This document shows, one piece after another, positions 14,083-59,683 of a DNA stretch of 64,000 bases. Numbering within the stretch: the stretch's first letter is position 1; each line of letters opens with the position of its first letter. The stretch comes from Yuukianura sp. NJ FZ-2021 (taxonomy: Eukaryota), in the NCBI GenBank assembly GCA_046563655.1, contig CM102288.1, positions 4,340,001 through 4,404,000 on the forward strand, written 5' to 3'. The notes beneath the pieces are model-generated. The model was not told the origin of the DNA, did no database searches, and saw nothing but the letters and a program-made list of their open reading frames with translations. The position numbers were made by a program, and so were the translations under genes.

Positions 14083-16709
14083 ATGTCTAAATTCAGAGCA
14101 GAAAGGAATGTAGAGCCACGTCAAATTGCAAACAGACGTAGAGTTAGCGTGTCCCCAAACCAGGCAGGACTCAAAAGCGATGAGAAAAGACGCAAAAGTC
14201 GCTCACCCCGGACATCACTAAACCGGAAACCAGTAGGAATAACTCAATTCCAAAGAAATGCTGAACCGCATGCGCAAGGAGAACGACGACAACGGGCCAC
14301 CAGCCTTCCAAATGAAAAACTTCGTCGAAAATCGGTAAATGCTGGTGGCGGGCATCTAGTTAACCACAAAGTACAAAAACCTCCGGAGAGGACGGCGAAT
14401 GCTGGCCAAGCTCATCCCGTTGACCAGAAGTCACCAACAACGCCAGAGCGTGGGAAAGTTATGAATGTCGCCAGAGGACACAGTGTTGGACATATTAAAA
14501 ATGTCGCCCCGAGTCCTGCTCATACGCCTGCGTCGTCCAGAAAACGCAAAGGAAGCGCTGATGTGTTTTATGACAAAATTCAAAAAATTCCGGAATTGAG
14601 ATTCCGATTTAAGCAAACACCGTCCAAGGCCTACTTGGACGAATTGGCCAGGAAAAGAGGTTTTAAAAAAAATTCAAAAAATAATTGATTTTTCTTCAAA
14701 ATTTTGTGTTTTGTTTTTCTATTTCAGTTGCTCGACGAGAATATTATGGTCACTTGGTTTCAGAACGTTATAGAGAACATTTACGTCAACAGAAAGAACG
14801 TCAATTGAATCCAGCGGCTGGACGACGAAACAGTCCGAAGTTGGACCAGCGACGAGCAACCCACGATGACGTCGAACCAATTCTGCGACATGCTTCCGAT
14901 ACTTCGTTCAAATTTGATTTCAGTCCGAAACATCCAACCAGCCACGCTAAAGACAAAAATGTCCATGACGACAATCATCAGCGTCCTGGCAGAACTAAAT
15001 CAGATCCAGCGATTCAACGGCCCGAGAAACAAACTGCTCAAAAATCAAAACCCGCCGCCACTTTGAATTCGACTACAACCAATCAGAAACCAGTTCCAAC
15101 AAAACCAGCTACAACCCATGCTAAGAAACCAGTTCCCGCAAACATCGTTGAAACCCATGCTAAGAAACCAGTTCCCGCAAACATGGTTGAAACCCATGCT
15201 AAGAAACCAGTTCCTGTTAAGGACAAAGGTTATGCTCCAAAGGATGCTAAATCCGACAAATCCGGCCATTTGCCAACCCCCCACGACATAGAAAATTCTA
15301 AGAGGCGCATGTCACACTTTTCTCAAGTTTCTAATCCAGAGACAGTGGACAGCATAGCGACGTCTCATTCTGGAGGTTCCAAACATCATGCGCATGATGC
15401 CCGTAAAGGTGCAACTCAGCATCCACATAATCGCAAAGATCATTGGAAACATGCCAGCACTGTTATGCCGCTCATGCGCTTTAAAAAAAAGGAAGTCACT
15501 CCGGACGAATTGCTCAACCGACTGACTCCGCTGGCTTCACGTCAAGAGCAAAACGAATCTGAGCAAAAAGTAGTGAGCCTAAAGACTGATGACGGCAAAG
15601 ACTCGAACCAACGTCGTCATGCGCATATTACCGACGCCAGTCCTGATGTGACTCCCACCAGTTCCATGCATGTGAAAAATCTAGTCGGTCCTGGAGGGAT
15701 GAAGAGCGGCGCAGAAGATGCACTTTACTACAAAAAGATCTACTCACATCGAAGAAGTATGCGACTGGCCAAAATCAATGACAAATTGGAAGCTAAAAAA
15801 CTGAAGGCTCAGCAAGAAACGGATGAATCAGTGAGAAGTTCAGTGGCCCACCACAGTGAATCAGCCCATTCAGTACCAAGTTTGGCAGCTGAAAAAGCAG
15901 TGGACAGCGGGCATAAGCGAGCACATAGTGCAACTTCAATTGGAACAGCCAGTGTAGCAGCTACGGAGAAACACTTCTCTTTTTGGAAGAAACAAAGTGT
16001 CCAGACAAATAGTCAAGGTCAGGACAAGGTCAAAGGCCAGCACACTGAGAAGCAATCTGAACTTGAGGTTGAAGAAGGTCACTCAAACCCAAAAGTTCAA
16101 CTAAATGCAGAAGATTTACTTCAAGGTCTTAGTCATAAGGATCCAAGTCACTCCGCACCACCAACACGAAGTGAATTGAAAAATGTCGCTGAAAAGAAAA
16201 GTCTCACTCCATTTGCTCGTCTGTCTCAAAAAATTTCCAACTTGTTTAGCAAAAACGACGACAAAGAATTAGGAAATGTTGACGCCAAAGATTCCGGCAA
16301 AAACGACGTCAAAGAATCAGACAAAATTGACGTCAAAGAATCACAATCTGGCAAATTTGACGTCATAGAATCTGGAAAAGTCAATGTCATAGAGAAAGAA
16401 TCCGGCAAAGTTAATGTCAAAGAATCTGGCAAAATTGACGGCAAAGAATCTGGCAAAATTGACGTCAAAGAATCTGACAAAATTGACGGCAAAGAATCTG
16501 GCAAAATTGACGGCAAAGAATCTGGCAAAATTGACGTCAAAGAATCTAGTAACATTGACGGCAAAGAATCTGGCAAATTTGACGTTAAGGAATCTGGTAA
16601 AATTGACGGCAAAGGCGCCATTGCAAATGACGCCAAAAGTAGCGGGAAAAATAACCCCGATCTTAAGATTATATTTCGTCAGAAAAAGTTGAAGCCTGGT
16701 TTTAAATGA
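14083..16709 (+). CDS. Uncharacterised basic, low-complexity protein of about 850 aa with internal tandem repeats (2 exons, intron about 14660-14728)
   Basis: Two long open frames joined by a GT-AG intron; no recognisable domain. Confidence 0.7.
15113..15215 (+). repeat. 39-bp coding tandem repeat (THAKKPVPANxVE, about 2.6 copies)
   Basis: ACCCATGCTAAGAAACCAGTTCC recurs three times at 39-bp spacing. Confidence 0.9.
16275..16645 (+). repeat. 24-bp coding minisatellite (KIDG/VKESG, about 14-15 copies)
   Basis: Unit GGCAAAATTGACGGCAAAGAATCT with variants. Confidence 0.95.
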
Positions 16710-27175: not shown

Positions 27176-27925
27176 TTCAAAACGGATTTTTAACTAAAGA
27201 TCAACTATTTTAAGAAATTATTAGTTTTCAATCACTATTTTATTACTTTTTATTTTAAAACTTCTAACTTAAGAAAACCTCGCCCTTAGAAGTTGTTTTG
27301 AAATGAGCAAGTTCAATTGAAATGAAGAGCAAGGATTCAAATGTTGTTCAAATGGAACAAGCCTTGTTTGAACAACTTGTCTTTTCTATTTGAATTTTGT
27401 TAATCATCCACAATTAACTTCTTCCTGTTTATCCTCCCCCTTCGAATGCATTTAAAACAAACAACTACAAGTGCACTCCAACCAGGAAGTTCCATTTCCA
27501 ATTAGTATTTATGCATATAACGCATCAACAATGCGTATTTGAACTAAATTTTATTGAAAATGAAGATTTTGAGTAATTTTCAATTAAAAAAAACCGTTGG
27601 AAGCCTCTTTAGCCTGATTCAAACCATGTTCTAGCGGTAAACCGCACATGTAAAACTTATATGAACAGGAAGTGGCCAATTCTGGTCTTACAATCGTAAA
27701 ACAGGGCAGTACATTTTCTAGATTTAACAATTTCATTAACTAAAAACCTGGAACCACATTTCCTGATATGGATGTAAGGATAAAGGTGTTAGCTTAATTA
27801 GCAAACCTAAGTTAATTAACTAATCAACGTAGTCTCTATTATAAATCCCACTAAAACTTCCCGGTAAATCCATATCCTTGTTCATTCTGAATTCAAAATA
27901 TCTGGCCAAAATACTAGTCCGAAAA

Positions 27926-28506
27926 ATGCGGAATTTCATAGTATCGCTTGTGTTTTGCGTACTTGTGCAGTTGACCTCTGGAGAGAACACTGTTGGTCGT
28001 AACTGTGACTTCCGTGACCCCGGGAGTCGCACTGCTTGTCCAGGGGCATTTGCGGGGATGACGCGGGCGCAGTGTGAGGTCAATCCAAGTTGCTGTTGGG
28101 ATACCCAGACTGCCTGGTCACCATGGTGTTTCCTCAACCGAAAAATGGTAGGCAATGTACAAGTAAAAATATTTCGAAAGTCATGAAATTCATTTTGGAA
28201 ATTGTTTTTGAAGGATGATTCGGAGGATAGGTGTGGTGGTACGTGTGATTTTGGAAATCATAGAAACCGTATGGCTCAACCCGGAGCATTTAGCGGAATT
28301 ACGAGACAACAATGTGACAACATTTGTGGATGTTATGATGACCAAATTCCAAATGCTATATGGTGTTTCACTAGATCGCCTAAACAAACTGGAACTACGT
28401 AAGATTTCGATATTTTTTTTTAAATTTTTCAAAAAAAAAATGTTTGTAAAAATAGTTGTGCTGAAAACATGCTCATTTTTTTAGACCCCGTTCCACATGC
28501 TACTGA
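27926..28506 (+). CDS. Secreted peptide with two trefoil (P-type) domains (3 exons)
   Basis: Signal peptide, domain 1 CDF...RTACPG..GMTRAQC..SCCWD..PWCF, domain 2 CDF...GITRQQC..CGCYD..IWCF, C-terminal exon TPRSTCY*; TATAAAT at about 27840. Confidence 0.88.
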
Positions 28507-28858: not shown

Positions 28859-30925
28859 CTAGTGACATCCGCAGGATTCTGCGACCATGTCCACATACTG
28901 TCGCAGTACGACATTGTCGTGGTCGTCGTAGTAAAGAAGCGAAATCGGAAGGAGATTCGTGGGGACGCAGCATGGAGGTTTTACGGTACTGGACAACTTC
29001 AGCGCATGCACAATGCTTTGTACCGTAGCATGATTAGTTGGTTTGACCTTTCAAAAAATCAATTCAAAATTTAATTTTTCAATCAATTTTTTGTGAAATT
29101 GTCTTTTGACCTGTGACCTTGACTTAATCATGTCCTACCTGTTGCCCCAGGGGGAAGTCGCATGTTCCATCGCAGTAGAAGGCATTGTACCCCTTGGGGG
29201 AGATGATCCACGATGACCAACCGATGGCTTCAAAATTCACCAAAAGGTCACGCCGTCCACACGAGGGTGAAGACGAGGTCAAGGTCACCGTTTCTGTGAT
29301 ATTCCTTGATCTTCTGTTCCTAAACCGGGTTACAGAGTTCGGATGTCGGATTGAATCTTTGTAGAGCAGAGCATGATGAAACCGAGGATTCTCGAGACCT
29401 AAATTGTCCAACCGATTTCAAACAAAAAAAAAGTTCAAACTGAAAAAAAAACAACAACAAAATTTTGATTTACTGGACGTTGGTACTGGATTTTCCTCGA
29501 TGTCATTGCTGACATGCTCCGTCGTAGTTTCGTTGTGACCGTGATTTGAATCGTCGGTGGTATCGTTCTTGACTTTTTTCGAATGACCTTGACCTTTTCC
29601 ATTTGAAAATGGCAGAATGGGGTCCAAGGTCAAATCCTGCGTGAATAAAACCAAATTCGGTTGTTTGCTGTCGATCGTTTCACCGCGACGTGAAAATCGA
29701 ACTGGGACGCGGTCTCCTCCCAAACTGGTTGCGACCAATAAAAATCCGAGGTTCGGACGTTCACCATTAATCCAGCGTGTCACAGACTGTCAAAAATAAA
29801 ACATATCTAATATATCTATATCTAATAAAATTTATACTATAATAAAAATATTTCTAAAAAAAAAAAACAGAACGAAAAAAAAGGAAAAAAGTTCCACAAA
29901 AAAAGAATAAATAAAAAAAAACTCAATTTCCAAACTTAACGCTACAGGCAACATTTGATCTGAATTTACGAGATTCCTAAGTAAAATATTATTAAAATTT
30001 GGAAAATAATAGGTGACGTACCTGTTTGACATTGAAAATTTCCCAGCCTGACCCAAGAGCGTGACCGTAGTTGACCCCCAGTAGTTTGTGGAGGTCAGGA
30101 ACTCTAAGGTGGTTCATATCCAGTACTTCATAGAGACTCAGGATGTAGAATGGGGTCATGTACAGTGATGGATGCAATGCTTCATGCGCAGTAGGTGACC
30201 TGTAGACATGCAGTTCTGCTTCCAGAACTTTTTCAGTCACTCCCAGACTATTATTGGAGACGTTGAAGTAGAAGTAGTCGTTGAGAGAGTTATTTCTCTC
30301 CATAAAACTCCTCACGATATGAGCATTATATGGGTTTCTGGCACGAGTCACTCCGAATGAGTCTGTAATTGTGTTGTAAAGGTCAATCATAAATTCTGGG
30401 GGAGAACCAACAAGGTCAAGGTCACTCGGCATCGAATTCAGACCAAAAATCTGCAAACATCAAAAAATTAAAACAAAAAAAAAGTCATCAAAATGTGGGG
30501 AAAAACTCAATCAAAGCTTTTCACGAACTACTAAATTTGAGATCTTCACAGGAAATAGAGGATTCTCGGTTTTTGATGATTGGAGTTTTTTTAAATTAAA
30601 GTTTTAAATTTATGGTTTTTCATAATTTTTTTTAACTTTTCATTTTTTTTTATTTTACCTTTGAAAGTGTATCCAATGCATTTTGTTTGCTGTTTTCCAT
30701 TTCTTGGCGAACGATTTGTTCCACTTCTTCAGAAAATTGGACAATCGGTTCATCATCCGTCTTGTTCAAGTTTTCAATTGATGACAATTTCTCATTTTGG
30801 AAACTTTCACTTGAATTGTAAAAATTTCTCTCCAGAAAATTTTGATCCACAAACCCAAAAATAGTTGGTACAAAAAGCACACCAATGATCAGAATGCACA
30901 TCGTATGTCCGCTTTGGACGGTCAT
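28859..30925 (-). CDS. ADMP: Anti-dorsalizing morphogenetic protein (TGF-beta/BMP family), multi-exon
   Basis: Prodomain PPEFMIDLYNTITD..GVTRARNPYNAHIVRSF, furin site RNRRSR, mature domain IGWSSWIISPKGYNAFYC..C.FPLGQ, TNHATVQSIV, PCCVP, ISLLYYDDHDNVVLRQYVDMVAESCGCH; the FPLGQ and IISPKGYN signature and the Pinhead neighbour point to ADMP. Confidence 0.88.
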
Positions 30926-31534
30926 TTTTTCAAAATTGTACAAAGTGCAATTTTCAAATTTAAAAACCAAAACAGAACTTCGTAATTTCTTTGTAATTCT
31001 AAAAAGTACTCCTAATCCCCTCCTGCTCTTGAATCAACTGCTTCGAATCACATAGCAATGCACCTAAAAAATCGTGTTCTAAAAGCGATTTGTCTTTTCG
31101 AGTGACATCGACGAGATTTTTTTTCCGTTCTTCCAAGAGATCCTTGGCGCCGAGAAATATTTGGCAAAATCCTCATAAAATTTGCACAGCAGAGCAAACA
31201 GTTTTGTGCTACACATTTTGCAAATCCCGAGATTACGTCATAGAATTAGAGCAAATTACTTAATTATTGTAAATAATTAAAGATTAACATATAAATAGGA
31301 AAATAATATATGAATAAAATAAGTTACTGGGAAAGAGAAGGTGAAGGGCGGCACGAGTATTTAAAAAGTTTTTTTTTTATTTTGTTGTGTCTTGGAACAC
31401 AAAACATGAATATTTAGAAAAATTAGCATCTCTTTGGCTTTGTTTGGAATGTTGCCTGTGTGAAGGCCACAGTTCGTAAGAACAAGGTCAAAAGGTCACG
31501 AGGTCACCATGTTCGATCACACACAATCAAAACA

Positions 31535-32904
31535 CTACCGACATGCACAAGACGTCACCGAAACCAGCGTATGCTGTCGACCGCTCCGATCTGTATAAAA
31601 ATGTGACACGAGTTTCGTTGGAGCGCAATGGCCGTGACCTCCGTACAGAGAGGAAATACACGTTCCATTTGTGCCTGACCTAAAAAATAATATAATATAT
31701 TAATATTATATGAAATATAAATATTTTTACATTATTTTAGTACCTGATGAGACATTTGGAAGACCCGTCATGTGCTCGACACGTTCCCTGGCATTGCCCA
31801 AGGTCAATGACCTTCACGAGCGGTTCCTCTGAAGACTCTGACTCTCCGAGACTCAAATTCAGAGAATCATTTGAATTTCTTTGTTCAAACAGAAGTGAGT
31901 AATCGTAAACTTTTTGAAATTGGCGCGTTCTAAAGCAGCTGCCAACACACTGACACTCCTCTATGACCGAAACACATTCAAATCCATTCGGTCCCTCTAC
32001 CGTTACAGTTCTGTTGCGAATTGGCCTACAGTGTGAGTGTTCAGGGTCACTGCAGGATCCAGCACATTGACCCAGGTCAACTGTCTGTTCGTAGGGACTG
32101 GACTCGTGGAATTTGACAAGTCGGGGTATGCGGGAACATGCGTCGGGAGGAGACACGCAGTCGCAGGAGTCAATGACCTCAAAGTCCTGCGCATGGCCTG
32201 TAATGCTAAAGTGCCTGTGACGACGTGTAGAAGTGGGTTCACAAGTGGCAAAGCGACACGAGGCCCTTGAGACGTCTGAAGTGGCGTCTTCCAGGTCTCC
32301 CACTTCATCACTCACTTGACGGTTCTGCAAACTCAGAAAAATCTACAAACAAAATCATAAAAGTTCAAAAGTCATAAAATGTGTCCTCAAGAGAAGTTAA
32401 AGTTTTTTTCAAACCTGGATTGGATCCATTTTGGGATACTTTTTCAAAAACTTGTCAAATTCTTCTCGTTTCAAAGGCTTACTTGGATTCAGTCGATTTG
32501 AACATCTTTTCTTACATGATCCAATGTCAAATCGAACTTCCTCTCCATCTAGATCTATAATACAAATAAGAAAGTTCCAAAAATTTTTAATTTGAATGTA
32601 CGCATTTCGGGAGAAAAAATGATTTTGAAAAACGATTACCTTGGCCCAACACAATGAACTTTTCTTCTCTAATGCAACATTCGTTCACAATTTCTCCCGA
32701 ATTTTCACCAGATTCCAGTCTACGAAAACTCAAGTCTACAGAAAGTCAAAAAGGAAAAACTTTTTCATTTTTCCCCAAAAATTTCAAATGACAAATTTGT
32801 TGAGAGGCTTTACCAATTTTTGAACTACTCGAATCCGACCCATTGACTGACCTCCATGTTTCAGTCAACACTACAAAGACGAAACATGTTGAAATAAATT
32901 TCAT
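31535..32904 (-). CDS. pnhd: Pinhead, secreted protein with three cystine-knot-like repeats (4 exons)
   Basis: Signal peptide plus three repeats D[IL]GxCxxxC...C.P...V...C.C (FDIGSCKKRC, VDLGQCAGSC, IDLGQCQGTC); lies directly upstream of ADMP on the same strand. Confidence 0.85.
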
Positions 32905-34039: not shown

Positions 34040-35221
34040 TTAACATGACTTGGCAGAAGCCCTATGTCTATTCGTCTGAAGCCAACGATCCACTCTGTCT
34101 GAGATCATCGCCTTTTCATTTTGAGCTTCTCCAAGAATTTCTAAACTCCCTCCACTCGGTTTTCTACTTTCCAGAATCAGTGACTTCTGTCTCGAATTTC
34201 GACTGCTTCTGGTTGTCGACGACTCTTTGCGTTCTGGACCGCTGGGCGTTATGGTACCCGAAGAGCATGCGCGTTTGAGCCAGTCGTCTCCCAAGTATTT
34301 GCTTACTTCACGCACTTCGTAGCGTTGGGCCGGCTTCGGTTCCAGGATTCGCTTGAACAGCCTGATGAGTCTAGGAGTGAAGCTCTTAAATGATTCTGGA
34401 AGGCGAAATGACCTCTTGCGCAGCCAATCTGCGTAGTGACAGAAACTGGGGTCAGTGATGTCAGCGACCTGCCAGGGTGTTGACCCCGTCAGAGCAAGAT
34501 GTAGTAGAATTCCCATTTGCCAGACGTCAGTGGCCTTGGAGCATCTATACGTTTCTTGTTCCACAACTCGGCAGATTTCTGGAGGTGACAGTGTCACCCA
34601 TGATGGACTGGATTTGCGTACAATCGTCCCCTCGGGGCAAGTTGAGCCAAAGTCACACAGTTTGATGAGAGACAGATTTGACTTGAAGACGAGAATGTTT
34701 TCTAGTTTGAGGTCACAGTGTACCAGGTTGAAACTGTGTAGAAATTGGAGCGCACTGGAGAGTTGGTGGGCCACGGATTTGACCTGTGACACCGGGAGAC
34801 CTTGACCTCTCTTAACAAATCTCGAGAGGTCACGAAATGGCGCAAATTCTTGAACGAAAACGTAAGAGTTTTCCCAGAGGAATGAGACGTTGAAGGATGT
34901 GATGATGTTTGGATGTGGACTGAGGAAGTAGTTGGTGTGAACTTCACGCAAAAAGTCTTCTTCTGAGGTCAAGTCTGTCTGAATTGCTTTCAAAACCATT
35001 TTTTCGTGGCCTTTTTTTGCAAGTAGAATTTTTGCAAATCGACCCTCCGCTAGTGTTTTGACGATTGCGAATTCTGATTCGAGAGAAAGTTGCGGAGAAA
35101 GTGTGAAAGAGGAGGAGGAGGCTGAAGCTCCAGCAGACGCTGAGGAAGAAGTGGAGGAACGCGATTCCTCGCTGGCTGTCAGTGAATCCTTGTGTTTGCG
35201 AAACATTTTGCAAAATTTCAT
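34040..35221 (-). CDS. Ser/Thr kinase, SBK1/meng-po-like (single coding exon)
   Basis: LAEGRFAKILLA, VLKA, NYFLSPHPNII, HCDLKLENILVF, KLCDFG, PPE, PWQVADITDP, FTPRLIRLFKRILEPKP; TATATAAA on the minus strand at about 35573-35580. Confidence 0.88.
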   Translation of the reverse strand: MKFCKMFRKHKDSLTASEESRSSTSSSASAGASASSSSFTLSPQLSLESEFAIVKTLAEGRFAKILLAKKGHEKMVLKAIQTDLTSEEDFLREVHTNYFLSPHPNIITSFNVSFLWENSYVFVQEFAPFRDLSRFVKRGQGLPVSQVKSVAHQLSSALQFLHSFNLVHCDLKLENILVFKSNLSLIKLCDFGSTCPEGTIVRKSSPSWVTLSPPEICRVVEQETYRCSKATDVWQMGILLHLALTGSTPWQVADITDPSFCHYADWLRKRSFRLPESFKSFTPRLIRLFKRILEPKPAQRYEVREVSKYLGDDWLKRACSSGTITPSGPERKESSTTRSSRNSRQKSLILESRKPSGGSLEILGEAQNEKAMISDRVDRWLQTNRHRASAKSC

Positions 35222-38200
35222 TCGGAAATCTGTAATTTGAAAAAAATATAAAATTTCAAAATTTCAAAATTTTTGAAATCTCCTTCAGTTTTCAGCAGTT
35301 TACTCACATTTAGATTTTTCCGAATTTTCCAAGCTTATGTGGAAAATTATTCGCAGATTCAAATGCCACTTGATACTGGATTGTCACGATTTTCTTTATA
35401 ACGTTGATTTGTGCAAACTCGCAAATTTTTGAAACTTTGCGATTTTTTTTTATGTTGAACTCACTTTGCAGAAAGGATTTTCAAAAGCTGAAGACGCTTT
35501 GGTTTTGTTTCTGTTAGAACTGTTTAGTCAGAGAGTTTTGAAGTGAATTGAGAAGTGAAAGGCGTCCGTTGCTTTATATACTTTTTCGCGAACTCTTTTT
35601 TGCAAAACTTTTTTTGCGAACGTGCTAAACTGTTCGGAGGAAGTAACTCCCGGGTAAAGTCCAACCCGCTCCGAACTTCTTTTTCTGAGAAAGACAGAGA
35701 ATCGTTAGCCTGAATTTTTTCAAAAGAAGAACTTCTGACAGCAGAAGCGTTGGATTCTCCTTGGAATCTCTTGCCAAATCCAGGGAATCAAAACAGGAAT
35801 TGCAGGTAAACACTTGTTGCCAAAAGTCCAACTTTGTGCGAATTTCTTAAGAATTTGCCGTTTTTGTGGTATTTTGTAAAAAACAAAAAATTCTCACCTC
35901 CAATTTTGGAAGTGGATCAATGGATGTTGGGTATTTTGATGTTTTAACGTTCACTTCAATTCACCACAACCGTTTATTCTCAAAACCCAATTTTTTTTAG
36001 AATTCTTTTTACTTTTCAGGAATTTATTCGAATCTTAGAAAAGTCAAAAGGCAAGAAATTCGAAATTTCCATTTTTCAAGACCATGCGTCCTTCAATAAG
36101 AAGGAAAAGAACTTAAATGCATTTGACCTTGTCAATTTTTCACACATCAAAATCATAAAAGCATTTTCAAAATCAAGGTTCAACGTCAAAATTATTTGGA
36201 TTTAAAAAAAATCAATCCAATTAAATTTCAAAACTCAACATACAACAAACTTTTTTTGAACGCAAAAAATACATTTCAACTTGACATTATTTTCCTTTAT
36301 GATGAGCCATTTGCTTTCACCTTCACTAAAATTTGACTCAAGAAAGCTTTCACGTGGAGAAAGCACAATCTATTTCTGAAATGCAAAATAAAATGTCACG
36401 TTTTGTATCATGTCACGTTGAAATTGTGCGTGCCTAAATGTCAACGTGACCGTGGGCGCGTTACGTAAACACGTTTCATGTCACGTACTTTTCAATCTGC
36501 TTTCTCCAGAAAAGAGTTCGTATTTTTAACAAGTTGTTGGCCATTCTGACGATTAAGCACGTTTTTCTTTTCGTGACGTTCTCGGGATTAGTCACTTCCC
36601 TTCTCCACGCTTTCTCTCATCGACGGAGATTAGCAGTTTGGAAAAAATGTTTTGCAAACAAAGCTCCTTTTCCAGTGAAAAAGAAGTTACGCTTGGTTTA
36701 TTTTAGAAAATATAGAAACCAGACGGCTCGAAAAATGGCTGACGTCAACGTTCCCTTAGGATCGCTTAGAAGAAACTCATTTCTTGAAAGTTTAATGATT
36801 TCTTGAAAAGGCACAAATTAAAAAGTACATTTGAGCAAGGACTCAACTTTTCGAAAAACGAAAGTTTAAAAAAGTTGTTCCGACAATGTCAAGAGAGGTC
36901 AAAATCTTTCATAGAAAGTGCAGAAAGGCATCTGGTTTTTCCTGCCTAACGCTCAAATTAAGTCAACATGAACTTTTTTCTATTTTTTCAAGGCTTCTAC
37001 TTACGTCTCTTACTTTTTCTCATGAAATTTAAAATGACAAAAACAAAACTTAAGAAAAACGAGTTCTAAAATTTGAAAAGTTGAAACATAGGAAATTGGC
37101 GATGCCACTTCACAAACTGAAAAGAGAATCTGAAGAAGTGCAGTACATAACTGCAAACGAAGAATTCGTAAAAAAATATACCCAAAATTCTAAAAATTCA
37201 AAAGGTAGTTAGTAGCTAAACTTCATTTTCAATTTTTTTTTTTTGAAAAACCTGAAATGCTTTACTTTCCGGTTAAGTGAATATCCAAAATAAGAATATG
37301 TCTGAGACTGACCTAGTTTTTTTATGTTCTGTCAGAAGTCTGTCATGTTCCACCTCAGTAAGAAGAGACTGAAAGTGAGAAAGATGATGAATGTGATTTA
37401 GAACACGAAAATGAGCAAGGAGTGTCATTTGCAAGATGTACAATCCTGTGCTTACACAACCTAGTTAGGTTAGTTAGGATTTGGTTAGGTTGAGGTATTA
37501 CGGTTGAGTTAGGTTTTAGGTTTTGGGTTTGTTTATGAGTGGTTTACAATGCGGGCTCACTGTTCAAATCCATTGTTTATTTACAAACGGGTATTTCGAG
37601 CGTTACTGTATTTTTATAAATACTTTTTACTTATTTCTTTTAGAACAGAATTTAAAACAGAACAGTCCAGATGCAATTTTGCTTCAAAAACGTGCCCGAA
37701 TGGAACGAACCAGAATTTCACGTCAGTCAAAAACCTGTCACAGGAGCTGACCCAAATTTTTACATTTTTTCATTTTCTGGTTCCAAGCGTCCAGAAAAAT
37801 CAAAAGTGGAGCAATTAGTAAAACGCGATTTAAAAAATACAACATCTTTGTTTGTTGGAAAATTAGCAAAGTTCTGAATTCTGAAAAACGGAGTTTTGGA
37901 AAAACTGAAACTGGCAACTCACTCAACTGTTTAATTTTAAACAATTTTTTAAAATTCGACACAGTTTGACCTAATTTTCAGAACAATACAATTCCTTTCA
38001 CAGCATTTCAGTCTATCAAGGAGTTTCAGTTTTTTTTTTCATCCGTAGCTTCTATCCCGCAAATAAGCTTCAACCCAATTGCAGTTTGAAAAAATTCGAA
38101 AATTGAATCTAAAATGTTTTTTAGAAAAGTTCGAAATTTTCAAAATGTTGAAGCTTCCATGAATGTGCGATTTTTATAATGAGAATTGTGGTGCAACTAA

Positions 38201-52474: not shown

Positions 52475-55400
52475 TCACACGAATTCCGTAAAGTCCACGA
52501 CATTGAACGGAAGTTTTTGTTTAGGCGGAGCATTTGGAAAATCACTAGAATCTGATCCACTTCCTAACACTTCTGGCTCCAGCCGACTTCTCAGTTGCTT
52601 AATTTTACGAAGTCGTTCCAACCAGTTGGAAGCGTATGGACTTTGTTGAGCGGATTGAAAAATTAGAGAAGCCAACTGAAACAAAAAATTCAGATTTTTT
52701 TTTTCTCAAAGAAATCAACTGATTTGTAAACTGCCAAGGTCAAAGCCGAAATGTTTTTCTTACGTTCGAATGCAGAGCCAACTGACGTGCCAAAATTGGC
52801 AAGTTCCGATCAGATACAATTTTTGCTTCTGTGTGACCAATTTGCTCTTCAAGGACTGGCTTGGCTTTGACTATGATTCGATTCGTTCCATGATCCAGTG
52901 GTTGAATAATGACACAAGCATAGAGAAATTGACCCTGAAAAAAAAGTTCATTGTACAATTTCGTCCGAACTGTAACAAAAATTGACACAAAAGTTGAATT
53001 ACCTTGATCGTTCCAATGTCGTACTCCTCATTCGCATTATTATAAACGATTGCCACATAGTCATTCCCAATATGGCGCTTCTTGGAGTTGCAATTGGGGT
53101 CATTGCTCTTGTTAGGCATCAAGGTCGCCACATGGAACATCACCTAAGATAGTCAATTACTTTCAGTAAAAACTTTCAAACAACTTTAGTTTTCAAAATT
53201 TTGAAAATTACCTGCATGACATCATCTTGCCAAATGTAAGCAAATTCTCCATCATCTCCGTCACGTGACAGTCCACCCAAAAACGTTTTCTGTGGATCCA
53301 CTTCCCGCAGTTTCACAAGTCTTCCAAGTCCTTGCAAAAAATCTCGATATCGCATGGATCCATACGGATTTTGAAGAATCGAAGTTTCATTGGTAGATTG
53401 CCCTTGACCCACATACAAAACTCCAATTTTGTGTGTTTCATACGGAGGGATATAATCGATAACCTGAAAGTCAAAAGTTTTCAAAAATTGTTAAATTTTC
53501 AAAACATGAGTTGCAATTTTTGTTCTTACTTACCTTGATACTGTTTTCCATTTTTGTTGGAACTAAAAGTGGTTTGACCTCTCTTCCAAACAGTTGAAGG
53601 AAAACAAATCCAGGACTCATTCCAGATCGAATGCTACTCGAATCCTGAGAACCTCCACCTCCACCAAAATCATAGTCACGACGATTCATCTTATGTCCAG
53701 TGTCACCACTGCCTGCTGACAAAATACGACGAAGTCCTTTGCTAGATCGCGCATGCGGTCCACTCATCACGGACACCGTATTGGTTCTATCACGCTTCAG
53801 TGGTGTCAAGTCCACTTCTCTTGTCCTAGCCGACCGTACTTCCTCTACTGAATGCTGAGTCTGGAACGGAACTCTGTCTTGAACAGTTTTGATAAAATCG
53901 GCTGGTGACGATGACAAAGCAGAAGCTCCATCTTTCTGAATCACTTCTTCTGGAATAGCTTCGTAGCTTCCACGATAAGGTGAAGTTGTTCCACCTTTGG
54001 TGAGATGACTGCCTTTGAATGTCGAAGATACTTCTGCAGCAGAATTCAACATTTTTTCTGGACTGAAGACATCATCAGTCTTTGCAGAATCTTCTTCGTC
54101 CTGTTCTTGGATTTGATGTTGTTGGTTGATATAAGAATGCTTCCATGATTCCATTTCTGGAGAAGAATTTGATCGATGGACAGGTTGCTTTGAATTGTCA
54201 AGTGGAATACGCATGCGTCTCTCTTCTGGAGGTGACATAGCACTTGGACTCTTCGGGGACGACGGGGAGGACTTGCTTTTCTGTAGAGGAGGATGTGCTG
54301 CTGCTGCTGAACTCTCTGAATGACAACAAAATCAATCGAATTTGAAAATACTTAACAAAGTTTGCAGTTTGTGACCAAATTTCAACTGACCTTGTGATGA
54401 AGTCAACTCGCAGCTTCCTTCCTCAATGGAAGCATGGCGCGTAGGGGACTTGTGCGGCGAAACGGGGCATGGTCCAGGAGGTGTTCGAGAAGGAGAAAAG
54501 CCTGAACTGCTGCTCGAGTAAGGTTGAGGAGCTGGATTTTGAGTGCGTGAAGATGGTGAATTTTGTAAATCTACTGGATCCTTTAGAAATATTGCTGACA
54601 GCTCCCGCATTGGAAAGTCCTGCCCACTATTATTTCCTAGCTGATTTTGAATTCGCATCATCCAGGAAGTATTTCCGGTTGGACATCGAATATGAATTTC
54701 AGCCCATCCTTGACACCAGCAAGTGCACAGCATGTGATCACTCTGAAAAAAAAACGTTAAGTTTTACTGATTTGAATTTTTTTAAATTCTAATAAAAAAA
54801 ACCTTTTGCTTTGGGGCCCAATCTCCAAATTGTCCTTCTTCCAGCATTTCCCCAGTCAAACTCAGTTTCCTATTTGGTGGTTGGAGCTTGTGTTCCAGGC
54901 CTAAATGCGAGTCGTCCCTCGTCTTTGTTCCACCTCCATCGAGTCTCTCGCTTTCATCAGTTTTGCTACTGCTCGTCACAAGTTCAGAGTGATGCCTACG
55001 CCTATTACCAGCATCGGCTCCACCAGAGGCTGTTAACTGATCAAGATTAGTAGATTTTGTGTGATCTTCATCTGCGGAGTCTCCAGAAGTAGGATTGGTC
55101 AGCGCTGGACTTGGCTTCCGACTGTTCTCAATAATCAAAATATTAGTAAAGTTTGTTTAAGTCTATTCTTCAAATTCCTTACCATAACAGGAAGCATCTA
55201 TCGCACATGCTGTCACGCAATTCCTTCTGTGTACATCCACTTGTCGTGATTGTTACAATTTGATTATCAACGAGCCAAGTCTGTGAGTTGCCCCCCGAGA
55301 GCAAGAACGTCGTCGACGGGAAGCGGGTAGGAAGAGCTGATGAATCTGAGAAAGCATATCGTGCCATCAGATCCACACAAGTTTCAGTCAGTTCTTGATG

Positions 55401-58400
55401 AAAAGCCAACTTTGCTCCGGTTTTAGTATCGTTCCGCAGTGCTGGTCCAAGAACACTTCCAGATATCGGTCGTTCTCTTCTCTTGCTCGACTGTTCGTTG
55501 AGACTCGAACTTCGTTTCCGAGTTGATGAGTCTTCGTTTAGTAAATCCATGGCACTGCGTCGCTTTTCTTCTTCACACGGATTTAAAACGTTGTTCTGGA
55601 GTCCCTTCATTATGTAGCTCACAAATCCTTTTCTAGAACACAAAGCAGGGAACTCAAAATTTCGAAAAAAAGAAGAATTTTTTTAGGTTTCAAGTTGAAA
55701 TCTTTGAAGGAAGTACTTACCTGTATGAAAGTCGACATTTGAGGAACCACATAGCAATGACGTGATGGGCTAATGATACTGTGTACTGGTTGAATTTGAA
55801 AGGATTCGTGTAGGGCAATGCAATTGCAAAAATTGACATGTACCTGAAAAGTAAACCATAACTTAGCAAAAAATTACTTGATTTTTTAAACAGTTTGACA
55901 TAACTTACTGATCCTGGACAAATGAAGCGAAAACACGAGGAAGATGGATGAGTGTTGACAAAAACTCGAGAACCGGAATGGCAATGAGCGCCTTTGGAGT
56001 AATTCTGGACAGCGATAGAAGAACTTCCGGAAGGAGTCTGTGCATAGTGTCCTTCATTTCCAGAATGCAAGTGCTGAGAGACACGATACACATTTGAGCA
56101 CTTCGGGAGACAAGGCCTCTCTCCAGGCACTTCACAATTTTGAGTTGCTGAGCATTGTCTAGATGACTGTGGTACGACACTAGCGCAGTCAGTATTGGGT
56201 ACAAGTAGCCTTGGAAATCCGTTCGCTGAAACTTCAGAGGACGACGACGCAGAGAATCTGGATAGTCTGAAGTTTTATCCAACATCTAAAATAATATAAC
56301 ATATAAATAAAAAATTACTAAAAAATGTAAACTACTTAATATGAAATGTCGGGAGTTAAATTCAACTCACCATTCCACACAGGGCAGTTGCAAGGTAGTC
56401 AATGTCGTTTCCATGTTTCGAAAGGATAAGGGCTTTGTTCTCCATCACATGCGGAATTTGTTTTAAAACGAGTTCCAGAACTTCCCAATCTAAAACAAAA
56501 ATCCAAAAACAAAATTAAAATAAAAACAAAACAACAAACCATAAATTGTTCTACAATCTACGTTCTACTTTTTTCCAGAAGATGATTTCATACTTCCAGA
56601 ACTCAGAATGAGCGAAAGTGAATTGTGAACGATGTTACCTTTTTCTTTTCGGAGGCTAGAAACGACCAGTTTGCAGGCAACAGTGAGTGAAATGAAAGTT
56701 ACCACAGGTTGTGGAACAATCGTTGACTGAGGTTGTGGTGATGCACCGCCACTAGTACTCACTGTTCCAGAATTTGAACTTCCTTGACTAAAAACTGGAG
56801 ACTCCATTCCAGTCACTGTACTTTCGTCACTTTCACGATGATCCACAGCCAAGTATGAACTGTACTTGCTCACAATTCCAGTCACCGGATTCGGACAACC
56901 AAGATGGAACATCGAATTGGCGCGAAGTTTGAAGAAACATTCGAAAATCTATTTTCAAAAAGCACAAAATCAAATCACAAATTGTTTTGAAGTCAATATC
57001 CTCAATCCTCGTGGATTTCTTACCAAACGTCTAATTGAAGGACAATCTTCCAGCGTTGCTGGTTTTTTGTAATGGGTTGAAAGGTGCTTGACCACAATCT
57101 TGTAGGCCGTTACTGGAATTGAAGAAGGTAAATTGTACATTCGGATTTGAAATATTTGAATTAGGCCTTCGACGGCATCTCGAACATCTCCCACTTCATT
57201 CTCTGAGAAAATATGAACCGTGTCTCCTCCACTCGTGAGTTCGTAAGGACGATTCACAATCTGTTCAAAAAGAAAAATGAAGACATGATGTTAACATTTG
57301 CAATTTTTAACAAACTTTCAAAATCAATTTGCCATTTTGAAACTTACCTTTTCTAAAATATGTAGCAAATCGTGTCCTTTCTTTGAGTTGGCGTCCATCA
57401 TGAAGGCGACAATGAACTTGACCCCTTGTTGCCTCACGGAGAGATCAGTCTCAGTCTCAAGTGTTTTCAAATTGGGGAGAATGATCTTGTCAATCAAGTC
57501 TTCTTCATGTGTGTGTCGATTTGCAAGGGCAATTGAAGTGATGTAATTTAAAGCCAAAACTTTAAGGGCTCCGCGACTCTCGTTCCTGAAGTGCCTCTCT
57601 GTGAAATTGACTAAATATCCAAACCATCCTGGGCGAGTTCGCTGTAGAAGGTTGGTGACTTTGTACTGCAGTAATCTCTCGACAGAATGTTCCTAAAATG
57701 AAAAAAGTTAGCATTTTGGTTTTCAAACTTTAAAAAATATTTTTAAAATCTAATGATTACCGGTCTGAACTTGATGGTGGTATCAACAACAGCATAAAAT
57801 CGTTCCAGAGAGCCAGAAAATCCGCCACTGTCGACCGTTCGTTGAATCATATCCAGACATTCGTTTACAGCCTTTGAAAGCTTAAAGCTTTGGAATTCAT
57901 CGGTAGCAGTAACAGTGCCAGGTTTGGAAACAACAACTACTTTTTCCATGATATCCAGGATTAAGTCCCATGAAACAGACTGAAGTGTTTCTCCTTGTGT
58001 TCGAACGAGGTCTTGGATTCTCATCATAACTTCAAAAGAGATGTAAGGATGTTTACGATCCAGTGCCTAAGTACAGGAATCGAATTACACATTCAACATT
58101 CAAATGAGAAGTATTTCCAACTCAGTTCAGATAAATAATCTATGCAAATAGTACGTACCTGTCCAAATGATGAAAGAACGGTGCTGGGTGAGTATTTTAG
58201 TGATCGAATCATTTTGTTTCCCCAAAGAACTGCTCCAACAAAAAACACAGCTCCACGAATCACAAAAATTTCTTGTGAATGATCCCCAGTTTCCATAAAT
58301 CGACACATTGTCAGCAGGCCGGAGTGTCCGAAGTGCGTTCCCAACAGGTCTCGCATTATTTTCCAACTTGTACTGCATAACTGTTCGTGATTTACCATAC

Positions 58401-59683
58401 GACAAAGTGTGGCCAAAAGTGTTGAAAGACTTGCAGGGGGTAAGCTTGGATAGCAAATGACTGCTGACAGAACGTTAAGACACTCGTTCATGTCGTCTGT
58501 CACAGATGACTCACAGCAGATGAAACACACTTTTCTATAAAAGCAAAAAGACAATAATGAATTGATTGCATTTAGTAATCAGAACCTCGTTGTTCAGTCT
58601 AAGAATCTGTTGTTCGAAGTACCACTTACTCAATAATTCCTTCCAGCACATCCGAGTCCAAAAAACTCTGAGTAAACTTGATAACGTTGACCAGAAACGA
58701 CATAAACTCTTTGGTGCCAACGTGATTTCTGAAGGATGAAGTTGGCATCATGCAAGTCAAAATAAATGGTCCAATTTTTTCGTCAAAGTAAGAAACGTCA
58801 CGGCCATTTTCAGTTAGAGCTCGTAGAAATTCGAATCTTGGTCCAGCATCTTCGAGTATTTCATGTGACTGAATGAAAGTAAAGAAGTTTGACCGCACGG
58901 CACCATTCTTTTCGATTTGATTCCGACATATGGCAGTAAAGAGGCTGAAGACGAGATGGCGAACGTCCTGAGAAGTATAATAAATAATATTCAGTGAATG
59001 AATATATAATAAATAATAGTAATGTGGAATGACTTTCAAATAAATAAACTATAGTACAGATAAACTACAGTTGGAATTTGCTCCAACTTGGGTCTCACCG
59101 TTGGGACATCGCCACGTATCATCAGCAAATCTTTGAGCAGAATCCATAACTTCTCAATTGTGTACTGCAGATTCAAGAATTAGTAATTATTAATCACAAG
59201 AACGGAATATTAACAATTAGTAAACTGTATGCTCTAAATCCGATAGGCTTGTACCGTTTCTAAGCGACTACTCTTGGCCCAATCGAGTAATTCTTTGACA
59301 GCCTTGACCCTGGTTCCCAATGGACTCGTCTGCTTCAGCTCCGCTTCCAGTTCATCTGTCACCGTTACATATTCATCCGATCTCGACCGTGATATTCCTG
59401 TAATAAATACAGTATCAGTAAATATTTCTAAGTATAAGCATAAAACGATCAGTAGCTGTCATGAAGTCCCTGTCATATGCCCTTAAGAGATCCGGAACAG
59501 CTGATTTCCGCTATCAGCTGATCTGCCACCGGAAATCACAGCAAGTACCATTATGTCCCATTAACTTTGACATAATCAATCGTAATACTCATGAAATCAA
59601 CTATTGACCTTACCTTGTGTCTTCGTGATCCTAAATAATCGTTTTAATTTTTCTTGAAATCCTTTGTCTTCGTTACGAGCCAT
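52475..59683 (-). CDS. TSC2: Tuberin, multi-exon
   Basis: [76 protein letters not shown], Rap-GAP domain THKIGVLYV...FHVATLMP...KKRHIGND, end DFTEFV*. Confidence 0.97.

Follow-up and report, generated by a model that had tools for sequence, protein, structure and literature searches.

A compact gene pair in a springtail genome very probably encodes Pinhead and ADMP in tandem

Pinhead, a secreted multi-cystine-knot protein, and anti-dorsalizing morphogenetic protein (ADMP), a ligand of the BMP family, are encoded by neighbouring genes in several animals. Here we describe a pair of genes of these two families in a stretch of 64,000 nucleotides from Yuukianura sp. NJ FZ-2021 (contig CM102288.1, positions 4,340,001 to 4,404,000 of the forward strand), which was analysed as a whole and is called the window in the following. 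The Pinhead-Admp tandem of Ciona intestinalis was reportedly described by Imai et al. in 2012 (Science 337:964), and Xenopus pnhd is said to go back to Kenwrick in 2004. When compared to Ciona, the locus in the window agrees in its two gene families, in their order and in their shared strand, Pinhead coming directly before Admp; its host, however, is a hexapod and not a chordate, and the pair is known here from the genes alone. With Xenopus the window shares a secreted multi-cystine-knot Pinhead and an ADMP encoded by adjacent genes, but the pnhd-admp locus of the frog is much larger and is placed under a super-enhancer (PMC6610736; this paper, like PMC6989304, PMC8188501, PMC4218986, PMC4600745 and PMC8051952 below, is cited for excerpts of its text).

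Yan 2019, with reference to Imai 2012, places pinhead directly before admp "from arthropods to vertebrates" and adds that this configuration matters for the mutually exclusive expression of the two genes in Ciona (PMC6989304). The same gene pair in zebrafish is the subject of the 'seesaw' model, in which Pinhead has an agonist role and cross-repression acts in trans (Yan 2019, PMC6989304). In Xenopus, Pnhd binds Admp and lowers the level of phosphorylated Smad1 (pSmad1), and the two genes are described as adjacent in lower vertebrates and birds and lost from mammals (Itoh, Ossipova and Sokol 2021, PMC8188501). Among the insects, ADMP has been reported from Nasonia, honeybee and Gryllus and as absent from Drosophila and Tribolium (PMC4218986, PMC8051952), and the published phylogenies contain arthropod ADMPs from Apis, Gryllus, Zootermopsis, Daphnia, ticks, mites and spiders (PMC8051952, PMC4600745). 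An earlier annotation of the window, made from its letters alone (the sequence-only reading), had relied on cis repression in Ciona, on the binding of ADMP by Pinhead and on the lack of ADMP in Drosophila, and this background agrees with the excerpts of PMC6989304, PMC8188501 and PMC4218986. Conversely, the novelty that it implied for an arthropod pair was overstated, since the tandem had already been printed (Yan 2019 citing Imai 2012) and arthropod ADMPs already stand in published trees. The locus is therefore a further case of a published microsynteny and opens no new question alone. Our literature search returned no paper combining ADMP with Collembola, nor one combining pinhead, cystine knot and insect, and the excerpts of the arthropod-ADMP papers make no mention of Pinhead (0 occurrences in that of PMC4600745).

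Two intact, separately spliced genes lie on the same strand of the window, and very probably they represent, in this non-insect hexapod, a Pinhead orthologue on the 5' side and an ADMP orthologue 609 bp further on. As reported in Table 1, the five-exon Pinhead gene occupies 32904-31535 on the minus strand and is followed by a five-exon BMP-family gene at 30925-28859, the two-gene unit measuring 4.05 kb in all. The Pinhead stop at 31535, the ADMP ATG at 30925 and the approximately 610 bp between them, as given by the sequence-only reading, were all found again on the minus strand, with a spacer of exactly 609 bp. The gene models were drawn by eye from the minus strand between 28700 and 33200 and from the stop-to-stop frames, and were then checked by script; the splice models rest on the sequence and on collinearity with the annotated proteins of Orchesella (P0006) and Folsomia (P0017). 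The upstream gene encodes 356 aa, of which 24 are Cys, and has introns of 78, 85, 72 and 64 nt; the ligand gene encodes 485 aa and has introns of 208, 235, 75 and 91 nt. All eight introns are bounded by GT...AG, the frames of both genes are uninterrupted and each ATG is the first in its own stop-to-stop frame. In both genes the GC content ranged from 0.36 to 0.52 in the exons and from 0.08 to 0.29 in the introns. A 350-aa form of Pinhead, with the acceptor of exon 4 at 32324, was dropped in favour of 32342, because the six extra residues are present in the Folsomia, Daphnia and Artemia proteins. Of five DNA sequencing runs from two studies, X1 and X3 covered the locus in short contig pieces, none of those listed reaching across the whole stretch, and three skips in them fell near, and not exactly at, introns; they were not used as splice evidence.

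On sequence comparison, the upstream gene is a predicted Pinhead orthologue. The product of its exon 4 alone has 144 relatives at E ≤ 1e-3 among 1.84 billion representatives (52 at E ≤ 1e-10 and 5 at E ≤ 1e-30), so that the family stands far above chance, and it matched the Saccoglossus 'pinhead-like protein precursor' at 7.1e-25. Names were looked up for 30 of the 144 relatives (clusters): one was a Pinhead, from Saccoglossus, two were called 'CTCK domain-containing protein' and the rest were 'uncharacterized', 'hypothetical', 'unnamed' or nameless, just as had been foreseen for a gene that automatic annotation would leave uncharacterised. The arthropod sources of these 30 include Folsomia, cricket, termite, fig wasp, Timema, Daphnia, Artemia, barnacle, shrimps, horseshoe crab and millipede, and the other sources include amphioxus, brittle star, snakes, corals, anemone and sponge. 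A profile built from 17 sequences of exon 4 relatives retained 115 of 6315 candidates; 29 of these bear the name Pinhead or pnhd, one being the 'pinhead L homeolog precursor [Xenopus laevis]'. Since the profile held snake rows, direct pairwise scoring is the test of the vertebrate match. By this measure the spliced window Pinhead reached 113.5 bits with Xenopus pinhead.L, 106.2 with Latimeria and 107.3 with Oncorhynchus; the scores with Saccoglossus pinhead-like, amphioxus and Folsomia were 134.2, 161.1 and 302.9 bits, respectively. The claimed Pinhead identity thus holds in direct matches to the Pinheads of Xenopus, coelacanth, fish and Saccoglossus. By BLAST, the window protein aligned end to end with amphioxus proteins (residues 7-356), and the Pinhead tree tracks the species tree, Folsomia being the sister at 100/100. 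The top cluster for the upstream protein in the ESM Atlas was 'Pinhead' with a score of 0.88, which we regard as a lead only.

The same searches gave some observations on the family at large. Pinhead-like proteins were found on long branches in anemone, corals and the sponge Oscarella (P0055, P0176, P0184, P0051), and the Pinhead family may be older than the printed 'arthropods to vertebrates' range. Several bird Pinhead homologues (P0363, P0417, P0110, P0429) are named 'DNA polymerase epsilon subunit 4', probably as a result of fusion with a neighbouring gene. Many bird Pinhead entries stand among the profile matches, whereas according to a 2021 review an expressed pinhead homologue had not been found in birds (PMC8753366).

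The 24 Cys of the upstream protein fall into three modules, and every module has a GxCxxxC stretch and a CxC at its end. This framework, the hydrophobic N-terminus (top 12-aa hydropathy window from residue 3, with a mean Kyte-Doolittle (KD) value of 2.47, judged by hydropathy only) and the modelling of exon 4 as a cystine-knot fold are in keeping with the secreted three-cystine-knot protein that the sequence-only reading had proposed. Outside the signal peptide, 20 of the 23 Cys are conserved in all eight comparators, and the exon 5 Cys 316, 327, 353 and 355 are likewise found in 8/8. In the middle module, Cys 232 and 241 are kept in all five invertebrate comparators and Cys 206 in four of them (not in Artemia). 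All three are absent in the three vertebrate Pinheads compared (Xenopus, Latimeria, Oncorhynchus), in which the second knot seems, by alignment, to be degenerate.

To the window exon 4 product, AlphaFold2 (AF2) assigned a model with a mean predicted local distance difference test score (pLDDT) of 83.9; the value for the Folsomia Pinhead orthologue was 78.8. When the exon 4 model was aligned by VIA-align against 48,161 chains, 38 gave Z ≥ 2, and nearly all of the 37 listed are, by their titles, cystine-knot growth-factor folds. The best values were obtained with Norrin (6.3), NBL1 (6.1), nematode GPA2/GPB5 (6.0) and Gremlin-1 (5.9), and TGF-beta2, PDGF, GDNF and the CTCK domain of VWF followed within about 1 Z of the top matches. 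The search with the Folsomia model gave the same picture, a miniature TGF-beta2 monomer being among its tied top matches. The middle Pinhead module has, according to these models, a cystine-knot fold, with Z values that do not split an antagonist-like (DAN) from a ligand-like kinship. Its matches to NBL1 (4x1j), Gremlin-1 (5aej), Norrin (5bpu) and VWF CTCK (4nt5) lie at Z 4.8-6.3 over 68-80 residues, and two of these proteins, NBL1 and Gremlin-1, bind BMPs outside the cell, in agreement with a Pinhead that would act by trapping ligands. Unlike the DAN, CTCK and Norrin proteins, the window Pinhead carries three knots per chain and has no family-level sequence match: at E ≤ 1, Pfam returned no family for any of the five exon products of the upstream gene, DAN and CTCK (PF03045, PF00007) included. 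The Z values with these proteins are moreover middling, and tied with those of the TGF-beta, PDGF and glycoprotein-hormone folds. The modelled resemblance of Pinhead to DAN/CTCK is at fold level only, and hence the protein is not filed under DAN or CTCK.

The downstream gene, in turn, is a predicted ADMP orthologue. Pfam matches were obtained in three of its five exons (2, 4 and 5), the N-terminus shows a hydropathy window at residue 8 (mean KD 2.97) and furin-type RNRR/RRSR sites at residues 363-368 precede a seven-Cys mature domain. The search with exon 5 gave 14 proteins from 17 candidates. The best named of them was the Orchesella cincta 'BMP7' (P0006), which is the nearest full-length relative, with 55% identity to the spliced ligand over 440 aa, and which served as the full-length proxy query for the window ligand. 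Of 4847 candidates, 751 matched this proxy at E ≤ 1e-10. In the top 120 of the 751, the name anti-dorsalizing morphogenetic protein occurs 26 times (including the proteins of Nasonia, Saccoglossus, Xenopus laevis, Danio and Latimeria), the names dpp, gbb, screw, maverick, nodal and GDF do not occur, and the remainder is auto-named 'BMP2/4/7-like'. Scored directly, the spliced ligand reached 310.0 bits with Nasonia ADMP, 274.6 with Xenopus ADMP.S and 273.8 with Saccoglossus ADMP.

Exons 4 and 5 together scored 146.9 bits with Xenopus ADMP, versus 116.6 with human BMP6, 116.5 with BMP7, 114.6 with GDF5, 114.2 with BMP3 and 109.7 with BMP2, the non-ADMP comparison set being solved human ligand chains (PDB) only. 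Xenopus ADMP itself reached at most 131.9 bits with any PDB BMP, so that the springtail-to-frog ADMP match exceeds that of the frog ADMP to any human BMP. Identity in the mature domain was 67% to Xenopus ADMP and 69% to Saccoglossus ADMP, and exon 5 alone scored 80.6-97.1 bits with 14 of the 15 labelled ADMP-group rows (Nasonia, 63.0), versus a maximum of 67.5 with any PDB chain. The prodomain encoded by exon 2 reached 203.8 bits with Orchesella, 136.8 with Nasonia ADMP and 76.9 with Xenopus ADMP, and between 60 and 85 bits with 11 of the 13 labelled non-hexapod ADMP-group rows, those of Rhinatrema (52.2) and Chiloscyllium (41.2) being lower. It is this prodomain contribution that gives Nasonia ADMP a high total in spite of its divergent mature domain.

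In a ligand tree of 32 rows, the window protein and Orchesella were joined at 100/100, within a hexapod clade at 98/88 and a pancrustacean clade at 100/99; the ADMP of Nasonia and the homologue from Zootermopsis fall in these clades, and the branching order agrees with that of the species. Two further proteins, the 'BMP7-like' P0010 (Chiloscyllium) and the 'BMP2-like' P0011 (Rhinatrema), form a clade of their own apart from the named vertebrate ADMPs, which we take to be possibly a second vertebrate ADMP, ADMP2. The window ligand shares its pancrustacean clade with the ADMP of Nasonia vitripennis (Ozuak et al. 2014, PMC4218986) and has a far more conservative mature domain than the latter, with 67-72% identity to the ADMPs of Xenopus, Saccoglossus and Lingula versus 56% to that of Nasonia. 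In published rooted trees, the ADMPs of Nasonia, Apis, Zootermopsis and Daphnia stand in the ADMP clade (PMC4218986, PMC4600745). The earlier claim that the ligand is ADMP, and not Dpp, Gbb or Maverick, finds agreement in every test run (match ranking, bits and unrooted tree). The arthropod origin that had also been claimed is supported by the pairing of both proteins with springtail sequences at support 100/100. As the identity is only 49-56%, the host would be a springtail far removed from Orchesella and Folsomia, or else a different non-insect hexapod.

The order of the two genes recurs in other animals. Three public predictions are fusions in which Pinhead forms the N-terminal and ADMP the C-terminal part, two of them of horseshoe-crab type (P0091 and P0080) and one from king cobra (P0436). 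P0091 shows 85% identity to Tachypleus Pinhead and then 90% to Limulus ADMP, P0080 is a paralogous pair, and the two together have the look of a duplicated Pinhead-ADMP pair. Being annotation artefacts, these fusions indicate that the two genes are adjacent on the same strand, with Pinhead first, in those genomes. Moreover, in 12 species the Pinhead and ADMP entries come from sequences of equal size, which are whole chromosomes or long scaffolds in 11 species and a 413-kb scaffold in the twelfth, Saccoglossus.

By analogy with the described systems, the ADMP of this species would be cleaved at the furin-type site, secreted as a dimer and signal via BMP receptors to Smad1/5. Pinhead would be secreted and bind ADMP as an antagonist, as in Ciona and Xenopus, and we regard this binding as reasonably probable here. 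Transcription of the upstream Pinhead gene would, in addition, disturb the activation of Admp in cis, giving complementary dorsoventral expression, and the linkage would have been kept for that reason. What the spacer contributes is its geometry: the candidate Pinhead poly(A) signal lies 154 nt past the Pinhead stop, and as no more than 450 nt separate it from the start codon of ADMP, the promoter of the latter would fall inside or just behind the Pinhead termination zone. This layout is compatible with transcriptional interference and is no demonstration of it. The GGCGCC of the spacer, which we take to be a Smad1/5/Mad-type GC box motif, is a weak lead, with six occurrences in the 64-kb window versus 2.69 expected and a chance of about 6% for one within 609 bp. 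A motif resembling the cAMP response element (CRE), TGACGTAA at 31233-31240, was discarded, as it is not enriched (two matches versus 1.82 expected). No tandem repeat was found in the spacer, the sole one being a 33-nt A-rich stretch in ligand intron 3, and Rfam matched no family between 26 and 36 kb of the window.

Several points weigh against the reading of this locus as a Pinhead-ADMP pair working as a cis switch. The mature domain of Nasonia ADMP, the one curated ADMP of an arthropod, scored below human BMPs (63.0 versus 67.5 for GDF5 with exon 5, 38.0 versus 54.1 with exon 4). All three homology searches returned nothing but ADMP-like or Pinhead-like proteins; the ligand trees were unrooted and held ADMP-like rows only (the curated ADMPs of Nasonia, Saccoglossus, Xenopus and Danio included), and the other BMP subfamilies were set aside by match ranking, by bits versus human PDB chains and by published trees. 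The fold Z values of 5-6.3 are in a middling range, and Foldseek with the Folsomia Pinhead model against the PDB gave no match at E ≤ 1e-3, the weak rows being all cystine-knot growth factors. Two consensus motifs are associated with BMP responses, GRCGNC(N5)GTCTG for the Schnurri-type silencer and GGCGCCA(N4)GNCV for the activating element. In the scan for them, neither the former (0.07 matches expected) nor the latter (0.03 expected) was found. A spacer of 609 bp may be ordinary in a gene-dense window such as this one, where the gaps beside the pair, measured between open reading frames (ORFs), are about 1135 bp and 456 bp. Finally, published work disagrees on what Pinhead does: it is described as an antagonist for Ciona and Xenopus, and for zebrafish as a BMP-like agonist whose role overlaps redundantly with that of Admp (PMC6989304, PMC8188501). 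Pnhd together with Chordin was moreover reported to induce admp, at odds with a simple cis repression (PMC8188501).

As for the identity of the genes, the ligand could belong to another BMP subfamily (Dpp/BMP2-4, Gbb/BMP5-8, BMP9/10 or BMP3) or be a lineage-specific paralogue that resembles ADMP. The automatic names of its nearest relatives ('BMP7', 'BMP2-like', 'BMP4-like'), the tree without an outgroup and a Nasonia mature domain that falls under human GDF5 and BMP7 would favour this. It is made very improbable by the 26 ADMP names among the best 120 proxy matches, with no Dpp, Gbb, Maverick or Nodal, by a mature domain that matches Xenopus ADMP better than every solved BMP or GDF by at least about 29 bits, by the prodomain scores across the non-hexapod ADMP group, by a tree that follows the species with curated ADMPs in it, and by the position of the gene directly 3' of Pinhead. 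Slightly less credible still is that one of the genes, or the pair, has fallen silent or is in decay: losses are known by lineage, of ADMP in Drosophila and Tribolium and of both genes in mammals, but here the frames are intact over ten exons with canonical splice sites, the knot cysteines, furin sites and family motifs are all present, and branch lengths are ordinary in both trees. The alternative to which we give the least credit makes the upstream gene a generic multi-cystine-knot protein of CTCK/DAN type, next to the ligand by coincidence. An end-to-end alignment with named Pinheads, with three modules in register and 20/23 Cys conserved, speaks against it, as do the species-tree topology with Folsomia as sister at 100/100 and the identical 5'-to-3' order in three fused models of other animals and in print; what can be said for it is that no Pfam family was matched, that the Atlas score was under the 0.9 mark and that the fold matches do not separate DAN, CTCK, Norrin and TGF-beta types.

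Granted a true Pinhead-ADMP pair, how it works is a different matter, and the odds shift. We lean slightly towards linked orthologues without interference, each gene having its own promoter and the linkage being due to shared enhancers, a regulatory block or the inertia of a compact genome. This would be in line with the common super-enhancer over the Xenopus pnhd-admp locus, where the same maternal factors are bound (PMC6610736), with the zebrafish data pointing to cross-repression in trans and BMP-dependent repression of both genes (PMC6989304), with the induction of admp by Pnhd plus Chordin (Itoh 2021, PMC8188501) and with the short spacers usual in the 64-kb window. On the other side stand the cis interference of Ciona, which Yan 2019 and Itoh 2021 attribute to Imai 2012 and which has been proposed to be widely conserved (PMC6989304, PMC8188501), and the closeness of the ADMP start codon to the candidate Pinhead poly(A) signal. 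At this locus, cis interference, which the sequence-only reading had suggested to be retained in miniature, seems to us rather doubtful. Even less likely is its extreme form, in which the locus would be a near-minimal natural Pinhead-Admp cis switch, with read-through or polymerase occlusion giving mutual exclusion without distant enhancers. As doubtful as interference itself is a Pinhead that duplicates the action of ADMP as a BMP-like agonist, in the manner of the zebrafish 'seesaw', and does not antagonise ADMP by binding it. Yan 2019 (PMC6989304) and two reviews describe a ligand of BMP type by which pSmad1/5/8 is activated and the degradation of Chordin promoted, one fish Pinhead (P0407) carries a precomputed TGF_beta Pfam mark and the tied top matches of the Folsomia model include the miniature TGF-beta2 monomer; however, the window Pinhead has three knots and no Pfam TGF_beta match, and its own module scored best with Norrin, NBL1 and Gremlin-1, to which TGF-beta2 is nevertheless tied within 1 Z.

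Table 1. Predicted parts of the Pinhead and ADMP genes and motifs of the spacer between them (positions in the window)
Feature	Position	Strand	Remarks
Pinhead exon 1	32814..32904	-	ATG 32904-32902; hydrophobic N-terminus, probable signal peptide; donor GTAAAG
Pinhead exon 2	32640..32735	-	Start of cystine-knot module 1 (CC pair); phase-compatible splice; collinear with Folsomia P0017
Pinhead exon 3	32415..32554	-	GxCxxxC of module 1 and helical linker; 50% identity to Folsomia P0017
Pinhead exon 4	31744..32342	-	End of module 1, whole module 2, start of module 3; 199 aa
Pinhead exon 5	31535..31679	-	Remainder of module 3, terminal CxC, TAG 31537-31535; 53% identity to Folsomia P0017
Spacer	30926..31534	-	609 bp, GC 0.337; read as Pinhead 3' untranslated region (UTR) plus ADMP promoter/5' UTR
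AATAAA	31376..31381	-	Sole minus-strand copy in the spacer; candidate Pinhead poly(A) signal (consensus match only)
GGCGCC	31146..31151	.	221 nt upstream of ADMP ATG; weak lead
ADMP exon 1	30659..30925	-	ATG 30925-30923, signal peptide (hydropathy), start of prodomain
ADMP exon 2	30022..30450	-	Prodomain core; Pfam TGFb_propeptide (PF00688) 6.8e-11
ADMP exon 3	29474..29786	-	End of prodomain and low-complexity linker; collinear with Orchesella P0006
ADMP exon 4	29139..29398	-	Furin-type sites and first half of mature domain (Cys 383, 412, 416); Pfam TGF_beta 9.5e-13
ADMP exon 5	28859..29047	-	Second half of mature domain (Cys 449, 450, 482, 484), TAG 28861-28859; Pfam TGF_beta (PF00019) 1.6e-17

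The remainder of the window was scanned with Pfam on 130 of its 203 stop-to-stop ORFs of at least 75 aa, the 73 overlapping or shortest ones and the two genes' own ORFs being left out, and holds ordinary animal genes (GH31, asparaginase, Cys-loop channel, ODAD1, kinases, tuberin). Next to ADMP, in convergent orientation and about 456 bp from its stop, two adjacent ORFs lie at 27845-28402 on the plus strand, the first with a trefoil (P-type) match at 5.6e-06. On the other side, a 407-aa ORF at 34043-35263 on the minus strand contains a complete protein kinase domain (3.9e-34) and ends about 1135 bp upstream of the Pinhead ATG. Farther away, a multi-exon tuberin (TSC2) gene occupies 52743-59048 on the minus strand, with DUF3384, Tuberin and Rap_GAP matches over at least eight ORFs. 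A 674-aa frame at 14685-16706 on the plus strand gave no Pfam match; it is rich in Lys, Ser and His, carries about 20 copies of an eight-residue KESGKIDG-like repeat at its C-terminus and lies where the AT skew peaks (0.244 at 14-16 kb).

The contigs of run X3 (organism B) differed from the window in 1 of 405 letters over the ADMP-proximal part of the spacer (31011-31415) and in none of 277 over ligand exon 1/intron 1 (30586-30862); over the coding exons, 8-11 differences were counted per about 212-216 letters. This run mixes near-identical and divergent lineages, so that the similarity of the spacer may reflect sampling and not constraint.

The locus gives the known microsynteny a clean, intact and very tightly spaced example in a non-insect hexapod, and corrects an annotation in which the nearest public relatives are named 'BMP7', 'BMP2-like' or 'uncharacterized protein'. 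A complete middle knot in the invertebrate Pinheads compared, seemingly lost in the vertebrate ones, is relevant to the debate about an antagonist or a ligand role of Pinhead. The 4-kb unit also lets the published model of transcriptional interference be tried outside the chordates. If the cis switch were real, the chordate-type 'dual negative' Pinhead/ADMP dorsoventral circuit, lost in Drosophila and Tribolium, would exist in a basal hexapod, in a form compact enough to be transferred as one reporter construct.

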